Notes: a model not told the origin generated them from the letters alone. Positions 5,812 through 36,282 are shown, numbered from the stretch's first letter. The stretch: DNA of 64,000 bases from a virus (IMGVR_UViG_3300027810_000002:1-64000), one strand, 5' to 3'. A program made the numbers and translations.

Positions 5812-6923
5812 ATTTCACTATCATAATTATATGCACATAAATCATGCAGTCTTTTTATTCTATCTTTGATTTGTCCTTTTGTTTCATCATCCTTAGGCAT
5901 TCCATCAATATACATATTACATAGATGTAGAATGTTATAGTTCTTATACATATCTTCGATCTCTTCCATGTCGTACATGTCTTTATCGATAAAAGTATCT
6001 TGTTCGTATATGTTTGGTTCTATCTTTCTACCTACATTTTGGATTTGGTTGATAAATTTAGAAAGTGAATTACTTGCAGCAACGTGAGAAGGTACAAACA
6101 GATCAACAAAATTATTTTCAATCTGCTCTTTAAATTCACCCAAGGTAACATTGTAAAGACTTGTAAGATACGTTTTCACAAACTTTGGTGATCTATCATT
6201 CTCGAAGAAAGTTTCGCTCATGTCACTTAAATCAATTAGGTCAAATCCTTTTGCGTTGTTTGCGTCAGATCTTGTTAATTGATATGGAACACCAACCATT
6301 CTTAATTTACCTTTATTTTGTCTATAGTGAATATGTCCAGACCAAACTCCATCAAAATTATCATATGAATTTGCTTCAACTCCGTGTAAATTAGTAACCT
6401 TTGAATTTAGTTTAATTCCACGAACCTCTGAATGACAAAATACCATATTTGCCTGAGGATATTCTGCAAGGGTTTCAACTTCATGTTCTGTATCTCTTCT
6501 CCAAGGCATTAACAATACCTTCTTTTCTCCCCAATTAAAAAGCTTAGGTTCTTTATAGATCTGAACATTTGGAATCCACTTTAAACTATCAATTGAAGTG
6601 ACATCATTACTTTTCTTAGCCCAGATATCATGGTTTCCGCAAATAATATGTGTTGGTAGAATTTCACCTAATCTTTCAAATAGATTCACAGCATAATTTA
6701 ATACTTTTAAATTTATACTTTGTCTATTATCGAATGCGTCTCCGACCTGAATTAATATATCTCCGGGTCTAACTTTTTCTTTTAGGGTTGGGATAAATAC
6801 GTTTTCATAGAAATCCTTTTGGATCTCTAACCATTCCATTGAATTTGATCTGATACCTAAGTGCATATCACCTAAAACCCAGATCCGTTTCACGGGATTC
6901 TTTAAGATTTTATTGTCAATCAT
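5808..6923 (-). CDS. gp47: Recombination endonuclease nuclease subunit (Mre11/SbcD-like)
   Basis: Metallophosphoesterase motifs GDMHLG, GDAFD, GNHD, SGHIH; overlaps gp46. Confidence 0.95.
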   Translation of the reverse strand: MIDNKILKNPVKRIWVLGDMHLGIRSNSMEWLEIQKDFYENVFIPTLKEKVRPGDILIQVGDAFDNRQSINLKVLNYAVNLFERLGEILPTHIICGNHDIWAKKSNDVTSIDSLKWIPNVQIYKEPKLFNWGEKKVLLMPWRRDTEHEVETLAEYPQANMVFCHSEVRGIKLNSKVTNLHGVEANSYDNFDGVWSGHIHYRQNKGKLRMVGVPYQLTRSDANNAKGFDLIDLSDMSETFFENDRSPKFVKTYLTSLYNVTLGEFKEQIENNFVDLFVPSHVAASNSLSKFINQIQNVGRKIEPNIYEQDTFIDKDMYDMEEIEDMYKNYNILHLCNMYIDGMPKDDETKGQIKDRIKRLHDLCAYNYDSEI

Positions 6924-9315: not shown

Positions 9316-9623
9316 TTGTATGGGTTTATTTTTATTTCGTATGTTTCTTTTCCTTCTTCGAATTTGATTTGCTCTAACAAACCTAATTGAATGCCTCTTT
9401 TTAATCCTTCGGCTGCGTTCTCTACATTACCTTTACTATGATATTTCATTAAAGCATGTTGTGTGAATGTTTCCTTCTGTCGAGAGGGATTCTTTACAGC
9501 TTCGGTAATGAATATGTATAGTATATCGAAAGCATCAGGAAAAGCTTCTAACTTATCCTGGATGCCTAAGATATATTTTATTGGTAATTTATCTTCGTTG
9601 ATTGTGTAAACGTCGGCTTTCAT
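9312..9623 (-). CDS. Hypothetical protein (possible winged helix)
   Basis: 103-aa ORF translationally coupled between uvsX and the oxygenase. Confidence 0.5.
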   Translation of the reverse strand: MKADVYTINEDKLPIKYILGIQDKLEAFPDAFDILYIFITEAVKNPSRQKETFTQHALMKYHSKGNVENAAEGLKRGIQLGLLEQIKFEEGKETYEIKINPYK

Positions 9624-10732
9624 TATGATTCTACCGCATCGTTTAACATCTCTTCGATATCTAATGAACTTGATTCTGAATTATAATTAAATAGAGGTTT
9701 AATGTGTGTTTCGATTCTTTCTAATACTTCTCTAGTAAATACTTTATCTGTGAAGAATTCTTTATTTGGAACTGCTTCATCTAAGTGTTCGCAAATCCAT
9801 CCTCTTGCCGTTGCTTTAGGAACTTTCTTTCCTTTTTCAATCGAGCCTTTAGTAATTCCACAGATATCCCAAGTAGCATATTGTTCTAATCCAACATACG
9901 GATTCATACCTTCACTAAAATTTAGGTGGAATTTAATTGGAGTTGGTTTTGCAAAACGATTCTTTGTAGGTTTTGCAGTTACAATAATACCAACTTTATC
10001 CGCTCCATCTTTTAATTGTGCCTTATTTAACATAAGCACGATTGATGCTGCGTATTCTGGACCAGTTCCTCCACCTGCAATTTGCATTGGAATAAACGAT
10101 TGAGATTGGTATGTGTGATTTGTAAATATAAATGGAATCTTTAAATCTGCCAATGGCGTCATTATAATTCTAAATATAGATTTTAAGATCTTTGAACGAG
10201 TCATATCTGATTTTTCACTACCAGATGCTGCATCGTCGATTTCCTTTCTTGTTGCCAAGTTACCTGCAGAATCTAAGATGATCATAAGCTTTGGAATCTT
10301 TCCGCCGTTTCTTTTGATCTCTTGCATCTTTTGAGTAATTGTTGTAATAGAAGTTCTGAAATCTTGAACAGTATTCATTGGCTGATAATTTACCTTAGTA
10401 ATATCAATACCAAACTTGATCATTTGTTCTTTATCTACAGCTGCTTCACTATCATAATAGATTATACTATAACCCATGTTGATTGCTTCTCTTACAGAAT
10501 TTAAGGTAAGGAATGTTTTACCAGTTCCTGAAGGACCTGCAACTGAACAAGATCTGTTATTAGGCCAACCTCCGAAAAGGGAACCTGATACACATGCATT
10601 TAGGTGATAGTTTCCGGTAGGAATCCATTCGGTAACTTCACTAAAATTTGATTGATCCATCACGGATCCTAGTGGATTTAAATTTGCTAATTCGGCATTT
10701 AAATCGTTAAATGTAAAATCTTTTTTAGCCAT
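9623..10732 (-). CDS. uvsX: RecA-like recombinase UvsX
   Basis: Walker A GPSGTGKT, YYDSE, IILDS, FTNHTY, GGTGPEYAAS. Confidence 0.95.
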   Translation of the reverse strand: MAKKDFTFNDLNAELANLNPLGSVMDQSNFSEVTEWIPTGNYHLNACVSGSLFGGWPNNRSCSVAGPSGTGKTFLTLNSVREAINMGYSIIYYDSEAAVDKEQMIKFGIDITKVNYQPMNTVQDFRTSITTITQKMQEIKRNGGKIPKLMIILDSAGNLATRKEIDDAASGSEKSDMTRSKILKSIFRIIMTPLADLKIPFIFTNHTYQSQSFIPMQIAGGGTGPEYAASIVLMLNKAQLKDGADKVGIIVTAKPTKNRFAKPTPIKFHLNFSEGMNPYVGLEQYATWDICGITKGSIEKGKKVPKATARGWICEHLDEAVPNKEFFTDKVFTREVLERIETHIKPLFNYNSESSSLDIEEMLNDAVES

Positions 10733-21111: not shown

Positions 21112-21324
21112 CTAATTGTTTCCATAATACTTATTTAGTGCTGCCAATCTATCGTCGGCGTCTACTAACATTGTTAATGCTTCTTCTGCATTTTTGTAAA
21201 AATCACCAGTAGAGTGATCTCCAATACCTGTTCCTTTATTTCCTAATAGATCTAAAGACAATAGGGCCTTTGCTTTATCAGCCTCTGCTGAGGTTTTAAG
21301 CATTGTAATTAAATGTGCATTCAT
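21112..21324 (-). CDS. Hypothetical protein (GIGDH motif)
   Basis: 70-aa helical ORF with GIGDHS, a small family common in marine phages. Confidence 0.6.
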   Translation of the reverse strand: MNAHLITMLKTSAEADKAKALLSLDLLGNKGTGIGDHSTGDFYKNAEEALTMLVDADDRLAALNKYYGNN

Positions 21325-22253: not shown

Positions 22254-22828
22254 GCGTTGTCTAATAATTCTTTAATTCCGTTTTTATATTGTTCTTCCGA
22301 AAGACTACCTTCAACATATTGCGCGATTTCATCTCTAATGGCTAACATTAAATGTTGAGCTGCTGTAGTATCTACATCTTGTTTTGCTCTATCAATTAAC
22401 TCTGGGTTTTGTTTTACGGTTTGCATTGTAATTAAATCTTTTAGTTTAGTGGTCGACCATCCATGTGATCTTGTTGTATATACAACATCAATTGGTAAAT
22501 TATCACCGGTGAATCTTTTACCGATATAATCATCTCCTAATATTCTAACATCAGGCTTATAAAATTCCATTAACTTTATTAAGTCTTCTTCATTTTGGTA
22601 TGTGACAACCTCATCAATATATTTAATTGACATTAATGTCTTATATCTTTCGTATAACGGAATAACTGGTTTGTATTTTGTAAATCTTGTTTCAGAAGGA
22701 TCTACCTGTAAAAAGACCATAAAGTATTCACAGTGTTCCTTTGCTGTTTCAAAAGTGTAAATATAACCAGGATGTAATAGGTCAAAGTTACCTGCAGTAA
22801 ATCCTATTTTCTTTTTTAAGTTGCTCAT
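22250..22828 (-). CDS. Glycerol-3-phosphate cytidylyltransferase-like (TagD/RfaE2 family)
   Basis: AGNFDLLHPGY (HIGH-like), GDDY, RSHGWSTT. Confidence 0.8.
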   Translation of the reverse strand: MSNLKKKIGFTAGNFDLLHPGYIYTFETAKEHCEYFMVFLQVDPSETRFTKYKPVIPLYERYKTLMSIKYIDEVVTYQNEEDLIKLMEFYKPDVRILGDDYIGKRFTGDNLPIDVVYTTRSHGWSTTKLKDLITMQTVKQNPELIDRAKQDVDTTAAQHLMLAIRDEIAQYVEGSLSEEQYKNGIKELLDNA

Positions 22829-23156: not shown

Positions 23157-23720
23157 TTATTTTACTTTTGCTGTTGCTAAATATCCTTGGATTTCAGTGT
23201 ATTGAGATCTGAACTTAGTTTCACCAACAACTGATCCCATTGTGAAAGAAACAAATGTTCCTTCTGGTTTTTTCATAGCTGATTTATATAGAGCAACTGC
23301 TTCTTCTTGTGTTGCAAAAACCCCAAGAATCTTTTTATTAGTTGTAGATCCAAATCTAGCACCGCCTTCTAATCTAACCTCTTGACCGTTAAAGCTTACT
23401 TTATTATTAGCCATTACTAGATATTTAGTTTCTCCTTTTGCTGGAGCTTCTGATGAAAACTGTTCGTATTCACTTGTAGTAAAATAGTAAGAGCTCATTG
23501 ATTCGTTTAACGCTGGGTTGCTTTCATTTAAGAAAGATTCTAATCCTTTAATGTGTTTCATTATTTTCTTTTTCTTTTTATATTCTTCTTCAGCGTCTCC
23601 ACTACCTGCTGGAACATCTCCTGATCCAACTTGCGTTGCTGTTGGTAATAAAGTTGCTCCCATACCTCCAATACTTGCTGGAGTTATATTTTCATCTATA
23701 TCGTTTTTTCTGATATGCAT
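23157..23720 (-). CDS. Putative internal head protein
   Basis: Internal MKHIKGLESFLNE (ATG at 23561) followed by LNE sites. Confidence 0.6.
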   Translation of the reverse strand: MHIRKNDIDENITPASIGGMGATLLPTATQVGSGDVPAGSGDAEEEYKKKKKIMKHIKGLESFLNESNPALNESMSSYYFTTSEYEQFSSEAPAKGETKYLVMANNKVSFNGQEVRLEGGARFGSTTNKKILGVFATQEEAVALYKSAMKKPEGTFVSFTMGSVVGETKFRSQYTEIQGYLATAKVK

Positions 23721-23722
23721 GA

Positions 23723-24151
23723 TTAATATGTTGGAGTTTCTATTATCTTCAACTTAACAAGTTCAGCAATAAATTCTCTGAATTTCATTTTAATAGCTCT
23801 ACTAATAATAGTTTTATCACCTTCTACAAGATCACCGCCGTCAAAGTAATATGACTTGCCATTGTTTGCTGCTGTCTCTATAACGTTACCCAGCATAAAA
23901 TCAGAAGGACATCTTCTCGCTCCTGATAATGTTTTTACAACATCTTTTCCCCATGAAGATAAACCCATTTGTTCAGATACCTGACTATCATATCTAATTG
24001 GATTTCCAGGTAATGCTTGAACAGCGTCGCCTTCTGGTGTTCCATCAACGGCATAATGATATGCAAGAATAGCGTTAGCTAATGCTTCATCTCTGCCAGC
24101 TTTTAATCTTGCTTCGTTAACAAACTGTTCAAATAATTGTAAGTGTTTCAT
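23723..24151 (-). CDS. Putative internal head protein
   Basis: N-terminus MKHLQLFEQFVNEA. Confidence 0.65.
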   Translation of the reverse strand: MKHLQLFEQFVNEARLKAGRDEALANAILAYHYAVDGTPEGDAVQALPGNPIRYDSQVSEQMGLSSWGKDVVKTLSGARRCPSDFMLGNVIETAANNGKSYYFDGGDLVEGDKTIISRAIKMKFREFIAELVKLKIIETPTY

Positions 24152-24170
24152 TTTAGTTTTCTTTTATTGT

Positions 24171-27100
24171 TTACCAGGCGTAATCAAATTTCTTGATTTT
24201 ACCTACTTTATCTTTAATTTCTTTAGCGTAATTCTGAGACTCTTTTTCAGCATAACTAGATGTGTATTTCTCTGCTTTAGCTTGTTCAGCTTGTTTAGTG
24301 TAATCAACGTATCTGCTATAATCATCTAATATCTGAGACATATGATTAGATGCGTCTCTCATTTTAGCTTCTCTACCCTTAGAATTTCTTCCAATAATAA
24401 TATCTCCGTATCTTCCTTTTTCATTTTTAGCTAAACCATCTTTAATTTGAGCGGTTAATGCATCAATTGAATCTGCAACCATTTTATCTAATGGTAATTT
24501 AGAAGCTTTAGTTGCTAATATTTCTTGGTACCTTGCTTTGTTTGCTTTTTTGAAGTCTTGATCGCTTTCGAATGCAACTGCACCGGCTTTTTGATCAACT
24601 CTTCTTTTAACATCTTCTGCTGAAGATTTAGTAGGATTATTTAAACTGAATGCAATTGCTCTATCTGCTAAATCTGCGGCTCTTTTAATTGAAGAAACTC
24701 CAGTTGCATCATAACCTTTATATGCTTTGTTTCCACCAACTGCCATTCTATCATCTCCACCTTTTAAAGTTTTAGTGTTCTTCTTTGCTCTAAATCCAGT
24801 TTTTTCATATTGAACTCCTAAGAAATCTTTTCCTCTTGTTAACGCTAATATTCCTGGAGCAACTTGACCTGTTCCGAATGGATTATGTTTTGCATTATCT
24901 ACTACGTAAAATACAACAGCTTCTCTATTGTTAGCATACGCTTTATAAGCTTCTTTAGGTGTCATGTCGATTAAATCTTCGTCTCCGATTTGATCTAACT
25001 TCATTTTAGTTAATTGATAAAATGCTTTAGGTAATTGAACATCGTTCTTACCCCATCCCATCGCATCTGACATAGTTAATAAGTTTCTTAACTTAGAAGA
25101 TTTAAATGCTTCGTTAATTACTGATTCCTTTACGAAATTCTTAAGATCATCTGGATCTATAGAGTATTCTACTTCATCAGCATCGCTCCAAAGAATAACT
25201 TCATCTTTACCAATTTCGTAAATTTCGAATGATGAGTTTTTTAAGATTTCAGATCCATCAACGTCGTTAGTTTTATCATAAACATCTCCATCAAAATCAT
25301 CGCTATCGCTTTTGGCTTTAATATATTGTCCTTTTTTAAATTTAGCTTCGTTAATTACTGATTCAGCGACGATAGTATCGTAATGTACCTCTTGAACATC
25401 ACCATTATAATCAGCATAAACATCAATAGACCATTCTTTACCATTATCATCTTTACCTAACCAGAATTGATCTTGTCCTTCGTTACCGTGATCATCAATA
25501 ACATCTTCGTAATCAAATTCTACTTTATGTAATTTGCTACCTACTTTAAATTCAACGTAAGGCCATTCTTTCTTAATAACTTTAGCTGATTTAGCTTCAA
25601 TAACTAAAGATTCGGATTCATTTAAAGAGTTTATAAAATCTCCGAATGATTCGTAAATAAATTTTGTTTTCATATTTGTGTTTGTATTTTCATTTAAATC
25701 TAATGACCATCCATATTCTACGTATGATATTGCTTCATCTGGATTTACTTTATGTTTTTTAGCTACTTTTAATACTACATCTCTTGTTATTTGAGAATTT
25801 GGAAGTTTAGCAATTGCTTTATCAAACCCTGAAGGAACCCATATTTCTGGATTCTCATTGGTTGCTTCCTGTAATTTCATTTCTAGAGGCTTTGTATTTG
25901 TAGGCTCTTTTTCGTTTATTGTAATTGAAGCTAGTGCTCTATTACCGAATTTACTTAAAGAAATACCTTCTTCTGATACATTAAAATATCTAGTATTGTT
26001 CTTAGCCCATCTTTTACCATTAGTTGATAATTCTTTTAAAATATCATTGAATTCATCTTGTGTGATTTTACCATCACCAATAGCTTCTAACATTTTATTA
26101 CGTACATTTGCACGTTTACCTACAGTAAGTGCTGGATGATTTTCAGTATATCTTCTTTTAAGAGTTATTTTAGATTCATCTAATCTTTTATTAGTACTGT
26201 CTTTAGATAAAATTACTTTAAAGTTTTTACCTTTTAAATCAGTTGTTGCAACTGACCAACTTCCTGTTGCTGCGTTTCTTACAACTAAAACATCTCCTTC
26301 TTTGCGAATAAAATAAGATCCTCCTGCATATTCTCCAGTTGCTCTAGGATCTACTCCTTCTTTATCTTCAATATCTAAATCAAATGAATGTGGTTCAGTT
26401 CCTGGAGTTACATTAAATTTTAAACCGTCTTTCTTAGAATCTTCTTTAGTCCATTCGTCAGCAACTTGCTGTGCGATTTTCTCAGTTTGTTTTTTATTTA
26501 AAGTTATATCAAGTCTCATAAGCCTAGACTCATTATAACTTGCGATGTCAGAGTAATTAATTTCATGCTCTTCACCGTCTTGATCTAATGCAAAAATAGA
26601 TTTATCATTCCACATTGCATCATTTTCATCATTACCATTATCATAAGCATATATGATATATTCCTCACCATTAGCTAATTGAATAATACCATCATCGGCT
26701 TTCATAGCTTTCATTAACTTCTTCTTGTCGAATTTAGCTTCATTAACTACTGATTCAAATACACTAACTGCGACGTTAGTAGATTTTAAATAGCTTTTTA
26801 ATTCCATTCCCATTGCATCTGCTACCAGTTTCATTTCTGGTTCACTCATGTAAGTTGAAGTTCTAACTTCATAACCATTTTTACCTTTTTTAGCTATTTT
26901 CTTAATAGCTTTAATGCTGTTACCTGTTGCTTCTTCAAATTTCGTTGGAAATTCATACTTAAAGTCTGACATGTTGCCGTCATACGCTTCATTAGCCATT
27001 TCACCGTATAAAGATTCAACCCACTCTACTGAGTCTGCTGTTTTCTTAATCTTAGCACCGAACTGCTTAAAAAAATCTTTAGTAAAAGATTCAATATCCT

Positions 27101-27197
27101 TTGAGTCGTTTGCTAATTGATGAATATCTGACATTGTTCCTTCTAATAGAGAAGCATAGTCTTTTTTATTTTCTGATAAAAATGATTTAAAATTCAT
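24171..27197 (-). CDS. Putative virion-packaged polyprotein (1008 aa) with repeated protease-site linkers
   Basis: N-terminus MNFKSFLSE; internal ESVVNEA, ESLVIEA, ESVINEA x2 and several LNE/INE/LDE sites; late motif at 27232-27239. Confidence 0.65.
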   Translation of the reverse strand: MNFKSFLSENKKDYASLLEGTMSDIHQLANDSKDIESFTKDFFKQFGAKIKKTADSVEWVESLYGEMANEAYDGNMSDFKYEFPTKFEEATGNSIKAIKKIAKKGKNGYEVRTSTYMSEPEMKLVADAMGMELKSYLKSTNVAVSVFESVVNEAKFDKKKLMKAMKADDGIIQLANGEEYIIYAYDNGNDENDAMWNDKSIFALDQDGEEHEINYSDIASYNESRLMRLDITLNKKQTEKIAQQVADEWTKEDSKKDGLKFNVTPGTEPHSFDLDIEDKEGVDPRATGEYAGGSYFIRKEGDVLVVRNAATGSWSVATTDLKGKNFKVILSKDSTNKRLDESKITLKRRYTENHPALTVGKRANVRNKMLEAIGDGKITQDEFNDILKELSTNGKRWAKNNTRYFNVSEEGISLSKFGNRALASITINEKEPTNTKPLEMKLQEATNENPEIWVPSGFDKAIAKLPNSQITRDVVLKVAKKHKVNPDEAISYVEYGWSLDLNENTNTNMKTKFIYESFGDFINSLNESESLVIEAKSAKVIKKEWPYVEFKVGSKLHKVEFDYEDVIDDHGNEGQDQFWLGKDDNGKEWSIDVYADYNGDVQEVHYDTIVAESVINEAKFKKGQYIKAKSDSDDFDGDVYDKTNDVDGSEILKNSSFEIYEIGKDEVILWSDADEVEYSIDPDDLKNFVKESVINEAFKSSKLRNLLTMSDAMGWGKNDVQLPKAFYQLTKMKLDQIGDEDLIDMTPKEAYKAYANNREAVVFYVVDNAKHNPFGTGQVAPGILALTRGKDFLGVQYEKTGFRAKKNTKTLKGGDDRMAVGGNKAYKGYDATGVSSIKRAADLADRAIAFSLNNPTKSSAEDVKRRVDQKAGAVAFESDQDFKKANKARYQEILATKASKLPLDKMVADSIDALTAQIKDGLAKNEKGRYGDIIIGRNSKGREAKMRDASNHMSQILDDYSRYVDYTKQAEQAKAEKYTSSYAEKESQNYAKEIKDKVGKIKKFDYAW
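25108..26760 (-). repeat. Dispersed 20-bp repeat encoding ESV[VI]NEA in the 1008-aa gene
   Basis: gcttcgttaattactgattc identical at 25108-25127 and 25345-25364; variants at 25594-25613 and 26737-26756. Confidence 0.85.
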
Positions 27198-27230
27198 GTT
27201 TAGTATTTTGTTTTATTCTATATTATAAGA

Positions 27231-29120
27231 TTATATATCTTGGTTATTTATGAATTGTTCAAAGGTCATCATGCTGTTATCTAATTCGATTGATTCTGAA
27301 ACCAAGTCCATTGATTTTTCAAGTTCAGACTTTAAAGTGCCATACATTCCATGAATAGCCTTTGGCGTCATTTTCTTAAAAGTCTTTTCGTCTCCGTCTA
27401 TCATCGCATTTCTAACTTGAGTTGCTGAGATATTGTCATCTGTTCTTGGAATTTCAAATAATCCAAAGTCAGATCTTACGTTTAATTGATCTCTATATGA
27501 ATCATTATTAACTTGATATCCATAACCTTTTAATCTATCTGTTCCAGTTCCCCATAAGGTTGGCTCATACTTAGGTCTTAGTGCATTGAATATAGTATCG
27601 ATTCCTCCAGTCGGTATAATAAGAATTTCTTTTAGAAACTTATATTGCTTTTTAACATTGTTAAACATTTTAATTTGTAAGTCCGAATCGTATGGTTTTG
27701 AAAATTCATCTCCTTTTTTACGTTTTGGATTTTTAGATTTAACTAAAAGCACTACTACTGGAAATCCATTCTCTTTATGAATAGCCTCTAATACTTTGGC
27801 ATGACCTAATGTAAATGGTTGGAATCTACCAACAAACATATTTACTTGCTCTTTACCTTGTTCAGCGTGTTTTACGTTTAATGCCTCATTTAAGCTTACT
27901 GATGTTTTAATCTTATTGTGCATCATAAAATTATTGTAATCATATATTGAATTCTCATCTGTATTTTCAACGAACACTAATTCGTTTATTTTATCAACCA
28001 CGCTATTTAACTGCAAGACCATATCATCATTAATTATATCTGTTGCTTTAGTCTTTTGCTTTCTAAATGTTCCGATTGTTATTTTAAATAGAGAAGATAA
28101 AACTTCGTTTGATACGTGTGTTAGTGTTTTATCGTTCTTGATGAAATTTGTATTTAACTTAAAAGAACTTGAATTTGAAAACTCTGCGTTATCAAAGTTA
28201 ACTCCAATATATCTCGAAGCATTCTTAGAAATATAGTCATTAAATACTACTGACATTAATTCTAAATATCTGCGATTTGCATCTTCTTCATTTAATTGAA
28301 TTTCTTTAAAGTCATATGTTGTAAAGTGCTCTAGTATATCTGCTATCGCGATTTGATACATGTGAGAACTTTCTCTTTTTTCACTTATATTAGTTTTTGT
28401 AAAATCTTCTAATTTAAATGAAGTTATCTTTTTTCCTTCTGAGAAGTTTAAAACCAATCCTTCAATTTCTTGTTCTAAATCATGTTGTAAAACAGTAGAG
28501 TTTGAGCTTGGATTAAATATCTTATATATTTCTTTTGTAAAGCTTGTTTCAGCTTCAGTTTCAATATCATAATCAAATGACTCTGAAAATTCTTTGTCAT
28601 TCATCTCTAATAATTTGATTAATCTATCAACCTGTACTTGGTCTAACACTCCATCAAAAATAACTTCTTGTTTTTGAGTGTCTAATACTTTAGCCCACTT
28701 AGATATAATCGCCGGATCTATTATAGTCTTTTTAACTTTATTAGATTCGCTCATATGTTGAACGTGAGTTAGTATTAAATTATTGGTTGGTACTTTATCA
28801 TATGATATTGAAGATACGTTTGTTTCTGGTAAATATTCAAATCCAAATCTATAATCAGATGGTAGCTCTTCTTTGCTTTCTGGATTTAAACTTTGAATAT
28901 GTTTAATAGCAACTTCATATAATGACATTATAGTTCTATCAATGATTGTAAGAGGATTTCCATTCGAAGATTTATAATATTCAAATTTATCATTTACTCT
29001 CCTAACATAAAATGATGGAGCTGAGATTTTCTCAACTACCATTACTCTATTTTTTAATAGCCTTTGGAACTCGTTAGCATTTGCTGATTGAAAATGCTCT
29101 CTTAATTTTTGTAATGCCAT
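27231..29120 (-). CDS. Degenerate ligase-like N-terminal domain fused to a cytidylyltransferase/NMNAT-like domain
   Basis: C-domain VGRFQPFTLGH ... GTDR ... ISATQVR; N-domain VVEKISA and EIEGLVL resemble nucleotidyltransferase motifs I and IV; C-terminal MMTFEQFIN. Confidence 0.7.
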   Translation of the reverse strand: MALQKLREHFQSANANEFQRLLKNRVMVVEKISAPSFYVRRVNDKFEYYKSSNGNPLTIIDRTIMSLYEVAIKHIQSLNPESKEELPSDYRFGFEYLPETNVSSISYDKVPTNNLILTHVQHMSESNKVKKTIIDPAIISKWAKVLDTQKQEVIFDGVLDQVQVDRLIKLLEMNDKEFSESFDYDIETEAETSFTKEIYKIFNPSSNSTVLQHDLEQEIEGLVLNFSEGKKITSFKLEDFTKTNISEKRESSHMYQIAIADILEHFTTYDFKEIQLNEEDANRRYLELMSVVFNDYISKNASRYIGVNFDNAEFSNSSSFKLNTNFIKNDKTLTHVSNEVLSSLFKITIGTFRKQKTKATDIINDDMVLQLNSVVDKINELVFVENTDENSIYDYNNFMMHNKIKTSVSLNEALNVKHAEQGKEQVNMFVGRFQPFTLGHAKVLEAIHKENGFPVVVLLVKSKNPKRKKGDEFSKPYDSDLQIKMFNNVKKQYKFLKEILIIPTGGIDTIFNALRPKYEPTLWGTGTDRLKGYGYQVNNDSYRDQLNVRSDFGLFEIPRTDDNISATQVRNAMIDGDEKTFKKMTPKAIHGMYGTLKSELEKSMDLVSESIELDNSMMTFEQFINNQDI

Positions 29121-29149
29121 ATTTTTTTATTAATTTTCTTAATTATTGA

Positions 29150-29863
29150 TTATGCAAATGCTTCAATATCCCACTGGATTCTCTGCATCGGATCTTCTCC
29201 TCTAAAGTTCTTCTTTACCCAATCAATAAGTCCATTTTCGTTTTTAGCATTTTGTGCCATATCAAAAGCATTGAATGCTCCTCCGTTTGCTGCCATGTCT
29301 TCTAACCACTGATCATATTTCTTTTGATTCCATTTAACCTTCTTAGCGGCCTTCTTATGTGGACCATCTCCTAATTTAGAAGTAGCTGCATCATAAGAAC
29401 CTGGAAGAAATACTCCAGTTGTTCCTTTACCATATCCGATTTGCTTTCTAAACCTTCTTAGTGAATAATTAGCAATATCGATTTGCTTTTTTGTAGAAAC
29501 TTCTCCTTGCTTTTTACCAAGCTCTCTTTTCATTTCTTCAGCAGTTTTTTCGTCAGTTTCAAAATGCAGTGCTTTTGTTAAATCTGCAATATTATCAAAT
29601 TTACCTTCAGTAATCACTGATTCACTAAATAATCTCTTACCTGTTTTATCTTCTAAATGTATAAGTGCTTTAGGATATTTTTCTTGCATTACATTAAATG
29701 TAGCAGGAGCAACTTCTGGAGTACTTACAGGTTCTTGATGGATAACTTTACCATCTTGTACAACTACAATAACAGCAGGATAACTTCCTTGCTTTGCTGT
29801 TTTATGTACTTTACCTTTATTAGCCTCAGCTATAAAACTTTCAAATAATTTTACTTTTTTCAT
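29150..29863 (-). CDS. Putative internal head protein, two modules
   Basis: MKKVKLFESFIAEA N-terminus; internal ESVITEG linker at 29604-29623. Confidence 0.65.
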   Translation of the reverse strand: MKKVKLFESFIAEANKGKVHKTAKQGSYPAVIVVVQDGKVIHQEPVSTPEVAPATFNVMQEKYPKALIHLEDKTGKRLFSESVITEGKFDNIADLTKALHFETDEKTAEEMKRELGKKQGEVSTKKQIDIANYSLRRFRKQIGYGKGTTGVFLPGSYDAATSKLGDGPHKKAAKKVKWNQKKYDQWLEDMAANGGAFNAFDMAQNAKNENGLIDWVKKNFRGEDPMQRIQWDIEAFA

Positions 29864-29870
29864 AATATAT

Positions 29871-31160
29871 TTATCCTCCGTATTTTATGATACCCATTAG
29901 CTGGTTGATTGCTGCAAAAGTACCTGTTAGTTTCATTGTTTTTCCTTTATATACAAATACAATACCTTCAGTTGGTATAATTGATTCAACACCTCCGATT
30001 CGATCTAATCTTTCTAACTCTGAAATTACTTTATTAACTTGAGCAACTTCTCCACCCTTTTTAATTTTGTCAGCTTCAGTTCTAATTTGATTATGTAGTC
30101 TTTGCATTTCAGCGTCTGGATTAGCTGCAACAAAATTACTTGCATTTTTAAGAATGATAGATCCTAGTTCTAAGAAAAGGTCTTCAAACGGTCTAATGTT
30201 TTCTTTTTGTTTTACTTTAATATCTTCTTTATCAAATTTCTTTATAGCGGCTGCTTCGTCTTTACCAATCTCTTTTGCAAGTGATCTCATATTTAACGTC
30301 TTTTTGTCGCCATAGGCCCATCTTAATAATAAACCTTCTTTATAGTCTTGTTGTAAATCTGGAAAACTTGTATCAATTGTTTCTCTCCACCACATTTCGT
30401 GATATTTAGAAACTTGATCAGAGTCTGCTAATTTATATTTGTTCTTTAGATCTTCTACTTTCTTAATAAATTTAGCTTTATTCTTTTCAAAATCTAAATC
30501 TTTTCCTAATTTAATAATTTGCGGTGGGATAACTGTAAATGTTTTACCAACATTAATTTTAAGATCTTTCATTGCTTTCGCTATTGATCTTGCTGGTTTG
30601 TTATCATCTCCTATAATGTTTCCTTCTCCGTCTGTTTTCTTAATACCATGAAATTGAATAACATCACGATCATAATAAATTACATTTGGATTCTTAGAGT
30701 AAATTAACTCCATGTTCATCCAGTTTTTACCATTATCGAAAACTTCTAAATCTTTAGGGGATAATTTATTTAGCGAGTTTGCTAAGTCTTCTGCTGCGAA
30801 TTGAAAAGTATCTTGTACTAATTTACTTGGATGTCCTTCGAACTTTTGACTAAACGTAGCAAGATCCATTGGATTCTTTAATTCACCTTTATTTCTAGCA
30901 AATTTAACCTCTCCATCTTGTACTGTTGCAAATACGTTTTGGCCATCTGTTTTTTCAGTTGCTTCTTCCTCAAAGTTTAGTTCACCTTGTAAACCTGCCT
31001 CGATAATTTTCTTAAAATCTCCGAATGTTAAATCTTTTTCATCAAATGGATGGGACATGTGTCCTGCTGCTCCACCTTCTAAAATTAACTGAGAATCTTC
31101 TAATAATTCTTGATTTGTCCTTTCGACTAAAAAGTCTTGAAATGATAATAGTTTTTTCAT
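29871..31160 (-). CDS. RNA-ligase-like nucleotidyltransferase-fold protein with a capsid-targeting propeptide
   Basis: MKKLLSFQDFLVE...LILE/GGAAGHMSHPF; motif I TEKTDG, EGIVF (motif IV), KLTG (motif V). Confidence 0.65.
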   Translation of the reverse strand: MKKLLSFQDFLVERTNQELLEDSQLILEGGAAGHMSHPFDEKDLTFGDFKKIIEAGLQGELNFEEEATEKTDGQNVFATVQDGEVKFARNKGELKNPMDLATFSQKFEGHPSKLVQDTFQFAAEDLANSLNKLSPKDLEVFDNGKNWMNMELIYSKNPNVIYYDRDVIQFHGIKKTDGEGNIIGDDNKPARSIAKAMKDLKINVGKTFTVIPPQIIKLGKDLDFEKNKAKFIKKVEDLKNKYKLADSDQVSKYHEMWWRETIDTSFPDLQQDYKEGLLLRWAYGDKKTLNMRSLAKEIGKDEAAAIKKFDKEDIKVKQKENIRPFEDLFLELGSIILKNASNFVAANPDAEMQRLHNQIRTEADKIKKGGEVAQVNKVISELERLDRIGGVESIIPTEGIVFVYKGKTMKLTGTFAAINQLMGIIKYGG

Positions 31161-31164
31161 ATTG

Positions 31165-31467
31165 TTATTTTGACCAAGGATGATTCTTAGCCACCATTTT
31201 TTTAAAGTTAATAAGTCCTAAAACATCTCTGTCCTTTAAATCATGATGCAATCTGTAATCGTCGTGATTATATCGCCAATGAGCTTCTTTAGAACCCTTT
31301 CTGTGACCATATGTGACATCATCTTTTTTATCGTAAATTATTACGTTATCTGGGTGAAGTTCCTTGTATGACTCTTTAAACTTGTCGAAGGTATACCCTA
31401 CGACCTCATTATAAGTCCTGAATATTCCTTCACTAACAAATTGTTCGTATAATTTAATATGTTTCAT
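31165..31467 (-). CDS. Putative internal head protein
   Basis: MKHIKLYEQFVSEG. Confidence 0.65.
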   Translation of the reverse strand: MKHIKLYEQFVSEGIFRTYNEVVGYTFDKFKESYKELHPDNVIIYDKKDDVTYGHRKGSKEAHWRYNHDDYRLHHDLKDRDVLGLINFKKMVAKNHPWSK

Positions 31468-31470
31468 CGT

Positions 31471-31791
31471 TTAATAATTTTTATGTCCTCCATTGATTCT
31501 TTCAATCTCATCATATTCTCTTCTAGAATAATTAGATGAGTCTCCGGAAATACTAATACCAGAACTTCCACCGTAAGTCATTCCAGCTTTCATTAATTTT
31601 TCATCAATGTCTTCTGCAATATAGTCAGGTGCGTCGCTACCTATAATAATATCAATTTCATTCCATTTAGTAACTAACATTACTGTAAATGGATATTTTG
31701 ATTTACTTAATATTTTAACTACTTTGTCAAAATATTTTTTATCTACTTTTGCTTCGTTTACGAATTGTTCAAATAATCTAATATGCTGCAT
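31471..31791 (-). CDS. Putative internal head protein
   Basis: MQHIRLFEQFVNEA. Confidence 0.65.
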   Translation of the reverse strand: MQHIRLFEQFVNEAKVDKKYFDKVVKILSKSKYPFTVMLVTKWNEIDIIIGSDAPDYIAEDIDEKLMKAGMTYGGSSGISISGDSSNYSRREYDEIERINGGHKNY

Positions 31792-31792
31792 C

Positions 31793-32443
31793 TTATTTAT
31801 TCATTATATCTTTTAAAGTGTCAGCCATGCCTCTACCAAAAGAATAGCTTGAGTTTTGTAATCCAATTGTATCATAATTTGTACCAGTACTGTAGTTAAT
31901 CATAACTCCACCGTCTGATGAGTTATACTGATCTAATACAAACATTAATTCGTAAATCTCTTGAAACATTTTATCTTTAACGGATTTATTAATTCCTCCA
32001 CCGCATGTAACTGCGATTAAATAAGAATTATTACCATTGCTAAAGTTTGCTCTACCATCAATAGTACCACCTACTGTAGATCTCATTGTTCCAGAATATC
32101 CACCAGCAGCTCCTGTTGAAGATTGTTCAACTTCATTTTTCTTATATTTCTTAATTACCTTAGAAATCTTCTCTGCTAATTGATATGCGTTTCTTCCTTG
32201 AAATACATCATAAGAATCTTGTTCGATATCTCCTTGAACATTTAGATGTTCTTTGTAGTTTGGTAATTTACCGGATTTTGCAGATGCTTCCGCTTTTGCT
32301 AATACTTTTTCGTATGAACTTCCCCATTTTTCAACAGCGATCTTTGCGATTCTAACTTTATCTTCTAATTTAGCTTTAATACCTTTTTTATCAAAAGATA
32401 CTGCTTCATTTATAAAAGATTCAAATAATTTTACTGGTTTCAT
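31793..32443 (-). CDS. Putative internal head protein
   Basis: MKPVKLFESFINEA. Confidence 0.65.
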   Translation of the reverse strand: MKPVKLFESFINEAVSFDKKGIKAKLEDKVRIAKIAVEKWGSSYEKVLAKAEASAKSGKLPNYKEHLNVQGDIEQDSYDVFQGRNAYQLAEKISKVIKKYKKNEVEQSSTGAAGGYSGTMRSTVGGTIDGRANFSNGNNSYLIAVTCGGGINKSVKDKMFQEIYELMFVLDQYNSSDGGVMINYSTGTNYDTIGLQNSSYSFGRGMADTLKDIMNK

Positions 32444-32460
32444 TGTTTTTATATTTTAAT

Positions 32461-33306
32461 TTATGATATGTCCATTGCGTCATCATGATCACATACAATA
32501 CCTTTTTTAGCTATTTGTTTACATAAAGCATCTAGCTCATCAGTTTCGTATGTTGATGGAACTTTATCTGTTATTTTAATAGATTTTAGAAAGGCTTGTA
32601 CTTCGTCTAATCCGAATTTAACCCTATGACCTACATTTGATGTTTTTGCAACATCATATAAATACGCTCCATAAAATCTACCACGCTGTTCTGTGTATGT
32701 AAAATTAATTCCTTTAACTCTGAAAGGTTCGTTTTGAGCAGATATTGCCTTTGCTTCGCTTACGAATTGTTCAAATAATTGTACGTGTTTCATTGTATAT
32801 TCACTTTTTTCTATTTTATTATATATCTCACTCATACTCAACATATCTTTAATACTATTGATAAATGCATCAGCAGGAACCCTATGACCTCCGTCATATA
32901 CTGTATGATTAAAAGATACTTTATTGTCTTTAAAGTATTTTCTTACTTCTTTTCCGCTAACGACTGAATCGCTCTTGCCAAATCTTATTTCTATTTTAGT
33001 CTTTTTTAAATCAGAATCATCTACGACTGGATCGAATGTTCTACCAACCATTGCTGGATTAAATAACAACACTGGGATTGAAAGCTTGCTTCCAATTAAA
33101 TAAGAAACATATCCTCCCATTGAAGATCCTACAATAAGATCTGGATTTAATGATTTAATATCTTTGTATAATTTATCAAAAGTACTATCATCTCTATAGT
33201 TTATTGATGGCATATAAGCCTTGTCAAAGTTTTCATTTAAAAATATAATCTTTGGGTCTTTTTGATCAATACTAGATTCTAAACCATGTAAATACGCTAT
33301 CTTCAT
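32461..33306 (-). CDS. YqiA-like alpha/beta hydrolase fused in frame to a capsid-targeted module
   Basis: YLHGLES, nucleophile elbow GSSMGG, SDSVV, GGH; then internal MKHVQLFEQFVSEA (ATG at 32793). Confidence 0.75.
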   Translation of the reverse strand: MKIAYLHGLESSIDQKDPKIIFLNENFDKAYMPSINYRDDSTFDKLYKDIKSLNPDLIVGSSMGGYVSYLIGSKLSIPVLLFNPAMVGRTFDPVVDDSDLKKTKIEIRFGKSDSVVSGKEVRKYFKDNKVSFNHTVYDGGHRVPADAFINSIKDMLSMSEIYNKIEKSEYTMKHVQLFEQFVSEAKAISAQNEPFRVKGINFTYTEQRGRFYGAYLYDVAKTSNVGHRVKFGLDEVQAFLKSIKITDKVPSTYETDELDALCKQIAKKGIVCDHDDAMDIS

Positions 33307-33321
33307 CTTTATCTTTATCTT

Positions 33322-33383
33322 ATTTGTTATATGTAAATATAAACAAAAAAAATGACATAAAAAAATATTATGCCACTTATTTT
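33322..33383 (-). promoter_or_regulatory. Terminator plus early promoter cassette, copy 3
   Basis: TGGCATAA...TTATGTCA hairpin, T-run, TGTTTATATTTACATATAACAAAT. Confidence 0.68.
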
Positions 33384-33391
33384 GATTTATT

Positions 33392-33985
33392 TTAAGTTTT
33401 AGGTCTTCCTAATAATATCTTATCGTGCATTTTGCCTCCAAGTTTTCTAGAATACCAGCCATTTCCAGGTGATCCTTCTTTTAAACCTATCCAATCTACT
33501 TTTTTACCTAATACCTTTTCAACAGTTTCTAGATCTGAAACTAAAGGTACATTATATGAATCTAATAAGATCTCTGCGATCCTACCTGAAACTTCAATGT
33601 AAAAACCTAACTTATTAAGATCTCTTCCTCTAGCAGCGATGTATTCTCTTTTTGCTGCGGAAGTACCATCATGACCTACTCCTGAATATTTTACTCCGAA
33701 TTTGGTTTTTTTACCAAACATTATCATATCGAAATCTTCATCTCCGTGAAGGTCTAGACCTTCCCAATAATTCCAATCTGGATCTCCAAAAACATCGTCT
33801 GGCGATTTAATCTTTGCATGTCCACCTATTACAGAATATGCAGTAGATATTAACTCAAAGAATTCCCCAGCAAGCTCTGGATATTTTTTATGGTTAAACT
33901 TAGTAATTTTACCTCTCTTAGGTTTAATTAATTCACCACTAGTTTTTTCATTGATAAATTCTTCGTATAACTTTATATGTCTCAT
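33392..33985 (-). CDS. Putative internal head protein
   Basis: Likely start MRHIKLYEEFINEK at 33985; the track start at 34006 lies in a hairpin. Confidence 0.65.
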   Translation of the reverse strand: MRHIKLYEEFINEKTSGELIKPKRGKITKFNHKKYPELAGEFFELISTAYSVIGGHAKIKSPDDVFGDPDWNYWEGLDLHGDEDFDMIMFGKKTKFGVKYSGVGHDGTSAAKREYIAARGRDLNKLGFYIEVSGRIAEILLDSYNVPLVSDLETVEKVLGKKVDWIGLKEGSPGNGWYSRKLGGKMHDKILLGRPKT

Positions 33986-34001
33986 CTTGATATATTGTAA
34001 A

Positions 34002-34033
34002 AGCATGACCTTGAAAAATCTAGGCCATGCTTA
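34002..34033 (-). terminator. Hairpin/terminator after the 746-aa gene
   Basis: AAGCATGGCCT...AGGTCATGCTT inverted repeat followed by TT. Confidence 0.5.
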
Positions 34034-34041
34034 ACTTATTT

Positions 34042-36282
34042 TTATCCTAATGAAGATGTTAACATCCCAACGGCTGCTCCGTAATCTCCATCAGATTTTG
34101 ATAAGATTCCGTCTACAATTTCTTGTCCTTTAGCTTCGTCAAAATCATCTCCGAATGCTTTCTTTAAAATCGTGAATGCATATTCTTGAAATTCTTCGTC
34201 AGATTTAATTTCTGCTTCGTTAACTACTGATTCTTTAATACCGAATTCTTTAGCTAACATAGTTTGTACGTCTCCAACGTTTGCACCAGATATTTCCATA
34301 CCTTCCGTGTCGTTTGCTGCGAAATCTTCAGGTTGAGCGTATACAAATTTAAGTAATAAATCTTCGACGTCGTTTATGTCTTTTTTATTTTTATTGTAAA
34401 CATCTTTTAATTCTTTCATAGTAACTGAAAGACCTAAGGCACCGTGCTCATCAGAATCAATATCTAATTGAAATAATTCTTTAGCTTCGTTAACTACTGA
34501 TTCTTTAACAAATATTGCTTCTTTATCACTATATCCAGGTTCTAATGAAAGTCCGTGTTTTTTCATTAATGATTTATATTTATCAACGTTATTAATAAAT
34601 TCAATAGCAACGTCATCCATATCGCTTGGATCTGTATTTAGAAATCCTGTATAATCATCGTGTTTTTTATCAAATTGATAGTCTTTAGAAATCATTGCTA
34701 AGAACGCATTAACTTCTGATTTACCTTCAGTAACTACTGCTTCATTGTATAAATGAACATAGTTGCTTCCTTTTTTAGAATAAACTGATTCGATTTTAAA
34801 AGATCCGTCATTTTTACCGGCGTAATGTGCTCTAAAGAATAAATTATTATCAAGCTCTCCAAAGAAATGAGATAGTTTACCGATAAAGAATTCAGCGTTT
34901 GGATAAAGCTCTAAAACTTCTTCTTTTGTTTTCGCGTTTAAAACATCTCTATTAAAATCTTTTACGAATTTAGCTTCAGTAACTACTGATTCAAATGCTG
35001 GAACTAATCCTGAACCTTGGTAAAGATCTGCCATCATCCATTTTTTAGATTTTTCATCCCATAAGTATACGAATTCTGCTCCACCGTCTCTATCTGCGTC
35101 TTTTAAATAATTATCTATATTTTTAATAGATCCGGTAGTGTTTGCAGTACCGTCATTATAAAAGTTGATTTTAGAAATATCTGTAGATAAACCGCTATTA
35201 GCTCCTTTGCTAAGTACATCGTCTACATTTTTACCGTTTTTAAAAGATTTCTTAATAATTGGTAACATGTTGTCTGGGTAAGAATCATAATGAGTATATA
35301 CTGAAGTAATATTTCCAGCCTTGTCTATTTTACCAAATTGACCTCTTGTTCCTTCGTTAAGAACCGTAGATTCATTAACTGTTACTGGGTACATTTTACC
35401 GTTAAATTCAAATTCTTCTAAATCTTCTTCAATCGCTTTAGCTCTTGCTCCTAAAAATGCATTACGCTCTTCTAGTTTAGTAGTTTCATCAGTAACTGTA
35501 ATTAGTTCAACTTCATTTGATTCGTTTAGTTTAGAATCTAAATCAATTCTAACATCTTCTCCTTCGAATGCTTGGTTAAACTGATTGACTGCAGCTTGTC
35601 CCATTCCTTCTTGTTTAATCTGCTCTAAGTAAAGTGCAGTTCCTTCAACAATTCCTTGACCTCCCCAGCCAGCAGCATTTGCTATGTCTGAATAATATTT
35701 GTCTAATATAGTTTTAATTGTTGCAGGTCCAATTTTAATAAAGTGACCTCCTAATCCGGCCATTTTAATTTCTAAAGGTTTAATGTTTCCTTTAATCATT
35801 TTAGAAACTGGTAGTGCTTCTCTATGGAAGTTTGCATCAACCATCGCTTCGTGCATTAAATACTTAATACATCCTAAAATAGATTCACTAGACATTGCTC
35901 CTAAATCTACTAATACTTTGTTAAATATTTTATTATATACAGTTACAACTTTCTTAGCGTCTCTTTTACCTTCAACTTTAATAGCTTCAGTAATTTCTTC
36001 AACTTCTTCTTCATCACTAACAACAGGCACATCATCTTCTGATTCTGAATTATCTGATTCTTCTTCAGAAATTTCTCCAAATAATTGTGAAATTATAGCT
36101 GTTTTTTGTTCTTCGTCTAATCCTTCTAGTGAAGTGATTTCCATTGAATCTAATATAGATGCAATTTTTGTGGATAGTTCTTCTCTTTTAGTGTTGTTTT
36201 CTACTGCTAACTTAATTGTTGCTTCATGTGCTAACACATCTGAGAAAGACTTAAAAGATTTGATTTTATTCATTTCTGCCAT
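34042..36282 (-). CDS. Putative virion-packaged polyprotein (746 aa) with repeated protease-site linkers
   Basis: N-terminus KIKSFKSF; linkers ESTVLNEG, ESVVTEA, EAVVTEG, ESVVNEA x2; late motif at 36317-36324. Confidence 0.65.
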   Translation of the reverse strand: MAEMNKIKSFKSFSDVLAHEATIKLAVENNTKREELSTKIASILDSMEITSLEGLDEEQKTAIISQLFGEISEEESDNSESEDDVPVVSDEEEVEEITEAIKVEGKRDAKKVVTVYNKIFNKVLVDLGAMSSESILGCIKYLMHEAMVDANFHREALPVSKMIKGNIKPLEIKMAGLGGHFIKIGPATIKTILDKYYSDIANAAGWGGQGIVEGTALYLEQIKQEGMGQAAVNQFNQAFEGEDVRIDLDSKLNESNEVELITVTDETTKLEERNAFLGARAKAIEEDLEEFEFNGKMYPVTVNESTVLNEGTRGQFGKIDKAGNITSVYTHYDSYPDNMLPIIKKSFKNGKNVDDVLSKGANSGLSTDISKINFYNDGTANTTGSIKNIDNYLKDADRDGGAEFVYLWDEKSKKWMMADLYQGSGLVPAFESVVTEAKFVKDFNRDVLNAKTKEEVLELYPNAEFFIGKLSHFFGELDNNLFFRAHYAGKNDGSFKIESVYSKKGSNYVHLYNEAVVTEGKSEVNAFLAMISKDYQFDKKHDDYTGFLNTDPSDMDDVAIEFINNVDKYKSLMKKHGLSLEPGYSDKEAIFVKESVVNEAKELFQLDIDSDEHGALGLSVTMKELKDVYNKNKKDINDVEDLLLKFVYAQPEDFAANDTEGMEISGANVGDVQTMLAKEFGIKESVVNEAEIKSDEEFQEYAFTILKKAFGDDFDEAKGQEIVDGILSKSDGDYGAAVGMLTSSLG
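34214..34996 (-). repeat. Dispersed 20-32 bp repeat encoding E[SA]VV[NT]E[AG] in the 746-aa gene
   Basis: gcttcgttaactactgattctttaa identical at 34214 and 34484; variants at 34724 and 34973. Confidence 0.85.

Follow-up and report, generated by a model that had tools for sequence, protein, structure and literature searches.

Introduction

The head proteins that phages inject are front-line weapons against host defences, and their diversification is known mainly at the level of whole genes, as in the internal-protein loci of T4 and in promoter/stem-loop (PeSL) cassettes. Here we report on a short repeat in the viral DNA IMGVR_UViG_3300027810_000002:1-64000 (hereafter the window, meaning the whole stretch of 64,000 nucleotides (nt) that was analyzed), where it lies in frame between unrelated modules of two polyprotein genes and encodes a linker peptide of the general form E-S-V-[V/I]-[N/T]-E↓[A/G], the arrow marking the predicted cleavage position. 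The window covers the initial 64 kb of a linear IMG/VR virus contig of 175 kb, which has 34% G+C and is approximately 66% complete; the source is an uncultured marine T4-like giant phage, and nearly all genes of the window are on the minus strand. We consider it probable that the repeat is a dual-coded joint between cargo cassettes, acting at the protein level as a protease site and at the DNA level as a short in-frame recombination homology. Such a joint of ~20 nt would provide a testable rule for diversification within genes, and the rule would apply across an abundant clade of uncultured marine phages.

The T4 internal proteins (IPI, IPII, IPIII, and Alt) have a short N-terminal tag ending in hydrophobic-x-Glu and followed by Ala or Gly (in T4, MKTYQEFIAE↓A), occur together with a gp21-family protease and a gp23-family capsid protein, and have diverse, unrelated bodies behind the constant tag at a locus that is hypervariable between relatives (PMC8442874, PMC9026906, PMC3012670, PMC2839356). 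The locus described here is similar in all of these features, the protease and the capsid protein being found in relatives. However, the T4 internal proteins are separate genes whose products are cut once, whereas here up to ~12 modules are chained in frame and the cleavage motif is repeated internally; moreover, the internal motif is fixed at the DNA level and the N-terminal tags are not.

Modular exchange at short motifs has also been described in other systems. In the gp38 adhesins of T-even phages, according to passages of PMC3157838 that cite Tetart 1996 and 1998, short conserved glycine-rich coding motifs separate variable segments, and exchanges within or near these motifs give in-frame chimeras. 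The gp38 motifs are the structural core of one folded domain with the segments as its loops, whereas the motif considered here is a presumed cleavage site between independent proteins, and unrelated whole modules are exchanged, even between genes. PeSL cassettes of T4-type phages resemble the present locus in that conserved repeats flank ORFan cassettes and are proposed sites of homologous recombination, with the T4-type recombination machinery invoked for insertion, deletion, and replacement (PMC2839356, PMC4122927); however, a PeSL is a regulatory element of ~100 bp between genes and moves genes as a whole, whereas the present repeat has ~20 nt, is intragenic, and leaves the reading frame intact. 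In polyvalent proteins (Iyer et al. 2017), many unrelated effector domains are likewise combined in a single polypeptide, which accompanies the DNA on delivery and is processed into units (PMC5512222). They carry an embedded peptidase (MPTase) and known enzymatic domains, neither of which was found in the window proteins, whereas here the prohead protease would act in trans and cut at a single kind of linker that is repeated. Integrons, too, are arrays of unrelated cassettes separated by a repeated site, with gain, loss, and reordering of cassettes, but they depend on an integrase and on attC sites between separately translated genes; here the cassettes form one translated chain and no integrase was found in the 175-kb contig. 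In our full-text literature search, we met no account of polyproteins built from in-frame cassettes with a DNA-fixed protease-site linker as the joint. The system would combine known T4-type capsid-targeted cargo with motif-mediated modular shuffling.

Results and Discussion

The repeat and its distribution

A first-pass annotation of the window had drawn attention to two 32-nt stretches, 26729–26760 and 34965–34996, that differ at one position, and the alignment agreed with this. On the coding strand the single difference is AAT/ACT, which replaces Asn by Thr. All nine codons for residues shared by the pair were identical (9/9), for which genome codon usage gave a probability of 0.0017. The shorter identities listed in the same annotation (25 nt at 34214/34484, 20 nt at 25108/25345, and 15 nt near 29600/34720) were all found in place. 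Whereas near-identical DNA between unrelated flanks was thus evident, the conserved core was ~18–21 nt rather than 32 nt: copies without a common module kept only this core, and flank identity dropped to approximately 0.30, the random level. The 32-nt pair is longer than the core because, in both copies, Phe also precedes the linker and Lys-Phe follows it. These repeats encode F-ESVV[N/T]E-AKF on the coding (minus) strand, and the DNA core can be written as GAA TCA GTA RTT AMY GAA GC.

The annotation had also suggested a scan of the rest of the genome. When the 20-mer GAATCAGTAGTTAACGAAGC was searched with up to four mismatches, eight matches were obtained in the 175-kb contig, all of them in frame and confined to the two polyprotein genes; Markov-shuffled genomes gave 0–1 matches in the same scan. 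At the protein level, each of the two large genes had four copies of the motif E-[S/A]-[V/L]-[V/I]-[N/T/I]-E with A or G as the next residue, and the gene at 29150–29863 had one. Outside the surrounding island (23157–36282), the strict motif was found once, in a large protein encoded at contig positions 150832–156513, and a looser match in an open reading frame (ORF) was found at 163955–163972.

Codon fixation in the linker

The DNA of the linkers was more alike than the peptide requires. Among the nine linkers of the window, codon identity at positions with the same residue was 0.845, compared with 0.50±0.06 in simulations in which codons were resampled from genome usage, and this value was reached in 0/20,000 runs. 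For a wider comparison, relatives were fetched by module homology and not by the DNA motif, to avoid sampling bias, and 73 unique linker contexts were obtained. In these contexts Ser was encoded by TCA in 55/68 cases, the first Val by GTA in 50/51, the second Val by GTT in 46/51, and Thr by ACT in 28/31, against background frequencies in the same ORFs of 0.36, 0.40, 0.53, and 0.51, respectively. The preference persisted in 24 groups with neither flank in common, with GTA in 16/16 (P=4e-7), TCA in 14/21 (P=0.005), GTT in 13/16 (P=0.02), and ACT in 9/11 (P=0.04).

As a control, dicodons were counted outside the linkers, where Ser-Val was encoded by TCAGTA in 15% and Val-Val by GTAGTT in 22% of cases; dicodon context therefore does not explain the codon fixation. 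A degenerate scan of IMG/VR with GAATCNGTNRTTAMYGAAG gave TCA-GTA in 85/145 in-frame matches, compared with ~18% expected. The codon use of 125 N-terminal tags, whose peptide is under similar constraint, was at background (Val: GTT 19, GTA 17; Ile: ATA 23, ATT 23). These results indicated that the linker identity exceeds what amino-acid constraint together with codon and dicodon bias would give, which was the outcome on which the first-pass annotation had made its proposal depend. Linkers within one ORF were slightly more alike than those at different loci (0.83 versus 0.78; P=0.0005).

Breakpoints at the linkers and shuffling of cassettes

When the window was compared by blastn with close relatives (~75–97% nucleotide identity), 115/145 (79%) of the internal ends of high-scoring segment pairs (HSPs) were located at most 20 nt from one of the nine linkers, against 10% expected. 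The remaining ends were mostly at degenerate versions of such sites (RLDE↓S, SYNE↓S, and EITE↓A). In individual relatives these ends corresponded to defined rearrangements. Relative L173 lacked window positions 34234–34725, a segment of two cassettes, with the deletion ending in the linkers at 34726 and 34216; relative L204 lacked 25128–25595, again two cassettes, with both ends in linkers. The cassette order was permuted in L174 and L206, and in L205 and L207 a cassette of polyprotein gene 1 (26527–26756) was joined to one of polyprotein gene 2 (34480–34749). Rearrangement ends at the repeat, including chimeras across genes, were what the first-pass annotation had expected to see if the linker takes part in exchange.

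At least 118 IMG/VR stretches contained the exact motif GAATCAGTARTTAMYGAAG, in every case in the reading frame of a long ORF, and the same upstream module was followed by differing downstream modules in these stretches, and vice versa. From 227 linker-bearing ORFs we obtained 653 modules, which were then clustered. In cluster numbers, the two window genes have the architectures 0-4-14-43-1 and 27-18-8-12-2, and the relatives include 0-1, 0-4-10-1, 0-14-11-1, 27-18-2, and 27-12-8-6-2. Cassettes of both genes are mixed in 128-12-4-1 and 0-4-2, and a tandem duplication is seen in 0-11-11-20-1. With tighter flank families, 304 junction types were distinguished; 45 of the 60 recurrent upstream families had at least two downstream partners, and a family had up to 12 downstream or 20 upstream partners, the latter number belonging to one terminal module.

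Chimaeric junctions were also sought, as had been proposed, by mapping Logan contigs (contigs only) of four other marine metagenomes to the region, with uncovered stretches disregarded. Two well-supported linker-to-linker joints, 25359>25615 and 34730>25352, were found in run X8; the latter connects the two genes and has 151 nt on its shorter side. Joints with only 20–25 nt on one side match little beyond the linker and were left out of the counts (29416/29417>34722/34976, 25367>26368, 26389>32403, and, in run X10 with 22 nt on one side, 34239>34483). At the level of whole genes, joint 31782>32460 (runs X3 and X6) lacked a complete tagged gene (31793–32443) and ended in tag/start regions, and another metagenome contig joined 24163 to 32446. 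The start regions of the tagged genes thus look like gene-level joints comparable to PeSLs.

Linkage between linkers and their modules

Loose single-linkage module clusters gave identity curves with too much noise to reveal linkage, and families of 12-residue flanks were used in their place. In pairs with only the upstream module in common, the codon just before the linker was 0.92–0.96 identical at positions 1–2 (0.76 at the third position), and identity inside the linker was at most 0.10 above background. In pairs with only the downstream module in common, the two codons just after the linker were 0.91–0.99 identical at positions 1–2, and identity inside the linker was at most 0.14 above background. 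The linker is thus uncoupled from both neighbours, which argues against its moving as a part of the cassette, since a co-copied linker would stay linked to it. Such unlinking would be expected if linkers undergo conversion among themselves, or if exchange takes place inside the linker or at its two edges.

The linker as a putative protease site

The T4 capsid-targeting sequence, MKTYQEFIAE, has ten residues (PMC8442874). Cleavage beside it strips the sequence from the internal proteins, and positions 8 and 10 govern the processing (PMC8442874, PMC9026906); proteases of the gp21 family cut after Glu (PMC5694885). In the island, the N-terminal tags follow the consensus M-K-x-x-x-L-F-E-[Q/S]-F-[V/I]-x-E (MKxxxLFEQFVNE↓A), and the internal linker, (F)E-S-V-V-N-E↓A, resembles the cleavage half of the tag but without the aromatic residue three positions before Glu.

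Pfam searches of the window's own contig for S77 and Gp23 found neither; the protease, scaffold, and capsid genes that come after the portal gene in relatives fall past the end of this contig. In relative L227, whose portal protein is 93% identical, the portal gene was followed by a gene for a tagged 213-amino-acid (aa) protein, then by a fusion of Peptidase_S77 (gp21) with a scaffold, and then by a gene for a capsid protein of the Gp23 family. The fusion protein has 694 aa, with an N-terminal T4 gp21-type Peptidase_S77 domain (E 6e-12) followed by a repetitive scaffold-like region, and the major capsid protein matched the Gp23 family with E 3e-44. By eye, the head proteins of L227 carry similar [LIV]-x-E↓[AS] sites: the capsid protein has LINE↓S at its N-terminus, the tagged protein has SVLSE↓A, and the scaffold part has ESLTE↓A together with several copies of EH[IV]AE↓K. 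The gp21-type protease of the relatives and the similar sites in their head proteins suggest a cleavage role for the linker, and these sequences give good reason to regard it as a likely site of gp21-type cleavage that is related to the capsid-targeting sequence of T4.

In the protease-scaffold fusion gene of L227 (12320–14404), the long scaffold-like region has tandem units of ~11 residues (..EKTDQxIQYxEH[IV]AE..), each ending in hydrophobic-Ala-Glu, and these are followed by an acidic stretch. The nearest capsid proteins in GenBank phages were those of an uncultured 462-kb phage (52% identity) and of Prevotella Lak phages (37%).

A probable dual-coded joint and its alternatives

We propose that the linker is an internal copy of the phage's capsid-targeting/cleavage tag. 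A prohead protease of the T4 gp21 type would cut it after the last Glu, so that the polyprotein could be loaded into the prohead and then be cut into independent small proteins, which would presumably be internal or ejected cargo like the T4 internal proteins. At the DNA level, the core of 18–21 nt is nearly uniform at silent sites and is the place of cassette deletion, duplication, reordering, and exchange between both polyprotein genes, and also of fusion to, or splitting from, stand-alone tagged genes. These events may occur by short-homology recombination between linkers, carried out by the phage's own T4-type machinery within a genome or between co-infecting relatives, and every product would be in frame and cleavable. 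We further propose that the cassettes with consensus linkers are the movers and that the DNA of these linkers is kept uniform for this reason. A passage of PMC2839356 that cites Singer 1982 states that T4 recombination needs only small (<50 bp) patches of homology. The first-pass annotation had suggested that the linker doubles as a recombination homology; the codon fixation and the breakpoints at the repeat agree with this, and homology as the cause of the exchanges is our interpretation of them. It had also named UvsX and UvsY as enzymes encoded in the window, of which the former has a counterpart here (Table 1).

Several findings weigh against such a joint. Pfam and PHROG profile searches of the small ORFs near uvsX detected no UvsY. 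The exact identity tracts between given linkers are short (9–25 nt), at the low end for RecA-type exchange, and in L173, the clearest case, the whole linker matches the downstream parent and gives no direct view of a crossover within it. The excess similarity of linkers within one gene is small. Codon fixation could also result from descent of all linkers from one ancestral copy, and the survivors of selection would have their junctions at module boundaries under any mechanism. The protease was seen only in relatives because the window's contig ends in the portal gene, and the comparative data all come from metagenome assemblies.

The null hypothesis for the DNA identity, a conserved peptide combined with AT-rich codon bias and DNA without a role of its own, would suit a genome with this base composition, in which GAA, AAA, and TTT dominate their codon families and the linker peptide is clearly constrained. 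It is nevertheless very improbable in view of the simulated codon identities and the invariant GTA of the independent junctions; furthermore, adjacent Val residues consistently use unlike codons (GTA, then GTT), which dicodon usage does not explain, and the N-terminal tags, with a similar peptide, show no codon fixation. More weight is due to a combination of selection and common descent, in which rare illegitimate or microhomology joins occur, only junctions with a cleavable linker survive, and uniform linkers are inherited from a few copies that were copied together with cassettes, so that homology is inert. The short identity tracts and the linker of L173, which travels whole with the downstream cassette, are consistent with such a filter, as are breakpoints at degenerate sites with little DNA similarity (26177, 26527, and 35993) and the junction in L205, which lies in the YNE motif and not in the linker core. 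However, linker variants are almost unlinked to either neighbouring module despite identities of at least 0.9 at positions 1–2 of the adjacent codons, and silent sites, which are random in the module flanks, are fixed in the linker across relatives with module identities below 50%. Breakpoints also numbered 10–19 per consensus linker, against 0–9 at degenerate sites (9 at the SYNE site). We therefore regard the filter as unlikely to be the whole explanation, and favour a role of homology because the codon fixation is unexplained by the filter and because the linker is uncoupled from its neighbours.

The fixed codons might instead serve the mRNA or its translation, for example by a pause between modules for co-translational folding or as the site of an RNA-binding factor, with the shuffling unrelated to DNA identity. 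Specific synonymous codons are indeed fixed at domain boundaries, as this predicts, but the fixed codons are all common ones, none being rare, and no conserved sequence or structure extends past 18–21 nt, which makes such a function improbable. An exact, short, and widely shared DNA motif at every junction also resembles the recognition site of a dedicated enzyme, such as a site-specific recombinase or a homing-type nuclease, which would drive exchange as in an integron, and one HNH-domain gene is present in the contig (169965–170471, E 4e-18). This gene is the only HNH gene in 175 kb, lies more than 130 kb from the cargo island, and has no link to it that we found; by eye, the motif also lacks the inverted-repeat symmetry typical of recombinase sites. 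No match to a tyrosine integrase (Phage_integrase) or to GIY-YIG was obtained in the 175-kb contig, an absence that is weak evidence because about a third of the genome is missing. Taken with the position of the HNH gene, we consider a dedicated enzyme highly unlikely.

For the dual-coded joint, a further and more far-reaching version can be held only tentatively, namely that the linker has evolved as a dual code, comparable to exon shuffling at the level of proteins or to an integron that works in frame, whose DNA is kept by selection for cassette mobility and which maintains a clade-wide pool of plug-in cargo modules. If the dual-code reading is true, a module would only have to be placed between two linkers to be expressed, loaded into the head, released by cutting, and delivered; targeting would fall to the N-terminal tag and only cutting to the internal linker, so that one signal would load many cargoes in equal numbers. 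If cleavage and packaging take place as proposed, the linker would mark hundreds of ORFan modules as candidate delivered effectors, the mosaicism of these modules would be explained, and the arrangement would offer a natural model of how a single gene can supply several proteins to a T4-type capsid.

Polyprotein genes, tagged genes, and their modules

The features of the locus are listed in Table 1. The modules of the two polyproteins are 57–436 residues long and unrelated to each other. Besides the strict linkers, polyprotein gene 1 has degenerate sites at approximately aa 225 (SYNE↓S) and aa 341 (RLDE↓S), and polyprotein gene 2 has variant sites at aa ~99 (EITE↓A) and aa 304–310 (ESTVLNE↓G). 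Polyprotein gene 1 matched no Pfam or PHROG family, and the sole family match of polyprotein gene 2 was phrog_1987 (function unknown), at aa 311–420; a Pfam search of either protein at E≤0.01 gave no family, no embedded peptidase, and no known domain. A tblastn search of GenBank phages with the 1008-aa protein gave no match, and the 32-mer gave chance-level matches only. When 148 representative modules from relatives were searched, 12 Pfam families were matched overall, mostly by one module each, and some of these matches may stem from unrelated ORFs with a chance motif. Known domains among the relatives' modules were DUF5824 (three modules), GH25 lysozyme, dCMP/cytidine deaminase, a dual-specificity phosphatase of the polymorphic-toxin type, and redoxin; the other modules were for the most part without a Pfam match. 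For two modules, ESM Atlas entries offered no usable lead. As for the scale of the clade, 381 portal relatives were found, and linker-bearing reading frames were present in 177 fetched loci.

Table 1. Features of the window; positions are counted from its first letter.
Feature	Positions	Strand	Remarks
Cargo island	23157..36282	-	~12 genes with tags or linkers; between sugar-nucleotide genes and replicative helicase
Polyprotein gene 1, 1008 aa	24171..27197	-	modules aa 1-153, 154-534, 535-617, 618-696, 697-1008 (strict linker pattern)
Linker ESVVNE (GAA TCA GTA GTT AAT GAA)	26739..26756	-	one arm of the 32-nt pair
Variant linker ESLVIE	25596..25613	-	breakpoint in L204
Linker ESVINE	25347..25364	-	in metagenome-contig joints 25359>25615 and 34730>25352
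Linker ESVINE	25110..25127	-	breakpoint in L204, L205, L206, L207
Polyprotein gene 2, 746 aa	34042..36282	-	modules aa 1-436, 437-519, 520-599, 600-689, 690-746
Seven-residue variant linker ESTVLNE	35353..35373	-	4 HSP ends nearby
Linker ESVVTE	34975..34992	-	other arm of the 32-nt pair; 15 HSP ends within 25 nt
Linker EAVVTE	34726..34743	-	deletion end in L173; part of cross-gene joint, run X8
Linker ESVVNE	34486..34503	-	in weak joint 34239>34483 (side 22), run X10
Linker ESVVNE	34216..34233	-	deletion end in L173
Tagged two-cassette gene	29150..29863	-	N-terminal tag and linker ESVITE
Linker ESVITE	29606..29623	-	inside two-module gene 29150-29863
N-terminal tag MKHLQLFEQFVNE↓A of gene 23723-24151	24113..24151	-	
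Sister tags	29825-29863, 31429-31467, 31753-31791, 32405-32443, 32755-32793 (internal Met), 33947-33985	-	
60-nt start-region repeats	24109-24168, 31425-31484, 31749-31808, 32401-32460, 32751-32810		
UvsX-like recombinase	9623..10732	-	phrog_97 E 5e-60; Pfam RecA; context: candidate enzyme for short-homology exchange
gp46/gp47-like (SbcC/Mre11-type) recombination nuclease genes	4138..6923	-	context
Portal gene, cut by contig end	2..949	-	phrog_213

The tag pattern M-x(4-6)-[FYL]-E-x-[FY]-[VIL]-x-E opens eight genes or internal starts in the island and two genes at contig positions 81790–83812, and the residue after the tag is mostly A or G, with S or K in three cases. Stand-alone tagged genes recur as internal modules elsewhere (96% identity). 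The stop of the two-cassette gene (29150–29863), after ...QWDIEAFA, is located exactly where relatives have a linker and further modules, and the stop codon of polyprotein gene 2 likewise stands exactly where relatives have a linker and more modules. The longest chain was observed in L077 (IMGVR_UViG_3300027849_000082), where 11 linkers divide an ORF of >1322 aa into 12 modules; several of these modules occur as separate tagged genes in other contigs.

The start regions of the small tagged genes, comprising the ribosome-binding region, ATG, and tag, form a family of 60-nt direct repeats with 67–80% identity; the tag/start regions of these genes may be a gene-level counterpart of PeSLs. The ORF at 32461–33306 has a UPF0227 (esterase-like) domain at aa 3–105 and an internal Met at aa 172 that opens a complete tag, MKHVQLFEQFVSE↓A; the ORF represents a fusion or, alternatively, two expression units that overlap.

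Other genes in the window

Two cytidylyltransferase-like proteins are encoded, one at 27231–29120 (629 aa, inside the cargo island) and the other at 22250–22828, the latter adjoining an NDP-sugar epimerase/dehydratase gene (21321–22253). The ORF at 18962–19999 matched the T4 beta-glucosyltransferase family (Pfam T4-Gluco-transf, E 3e-10), which hints at sugar-modified DNA; in T-even phages, sugar-modified DNA accompanies anti-restriction internal proteins. A family-B DNA polymerase signal was found in two ORFs ~5 kb apart (11103–12302 and 17098–18495), which suggests a split polymerase gene like that of some T4-like phages.

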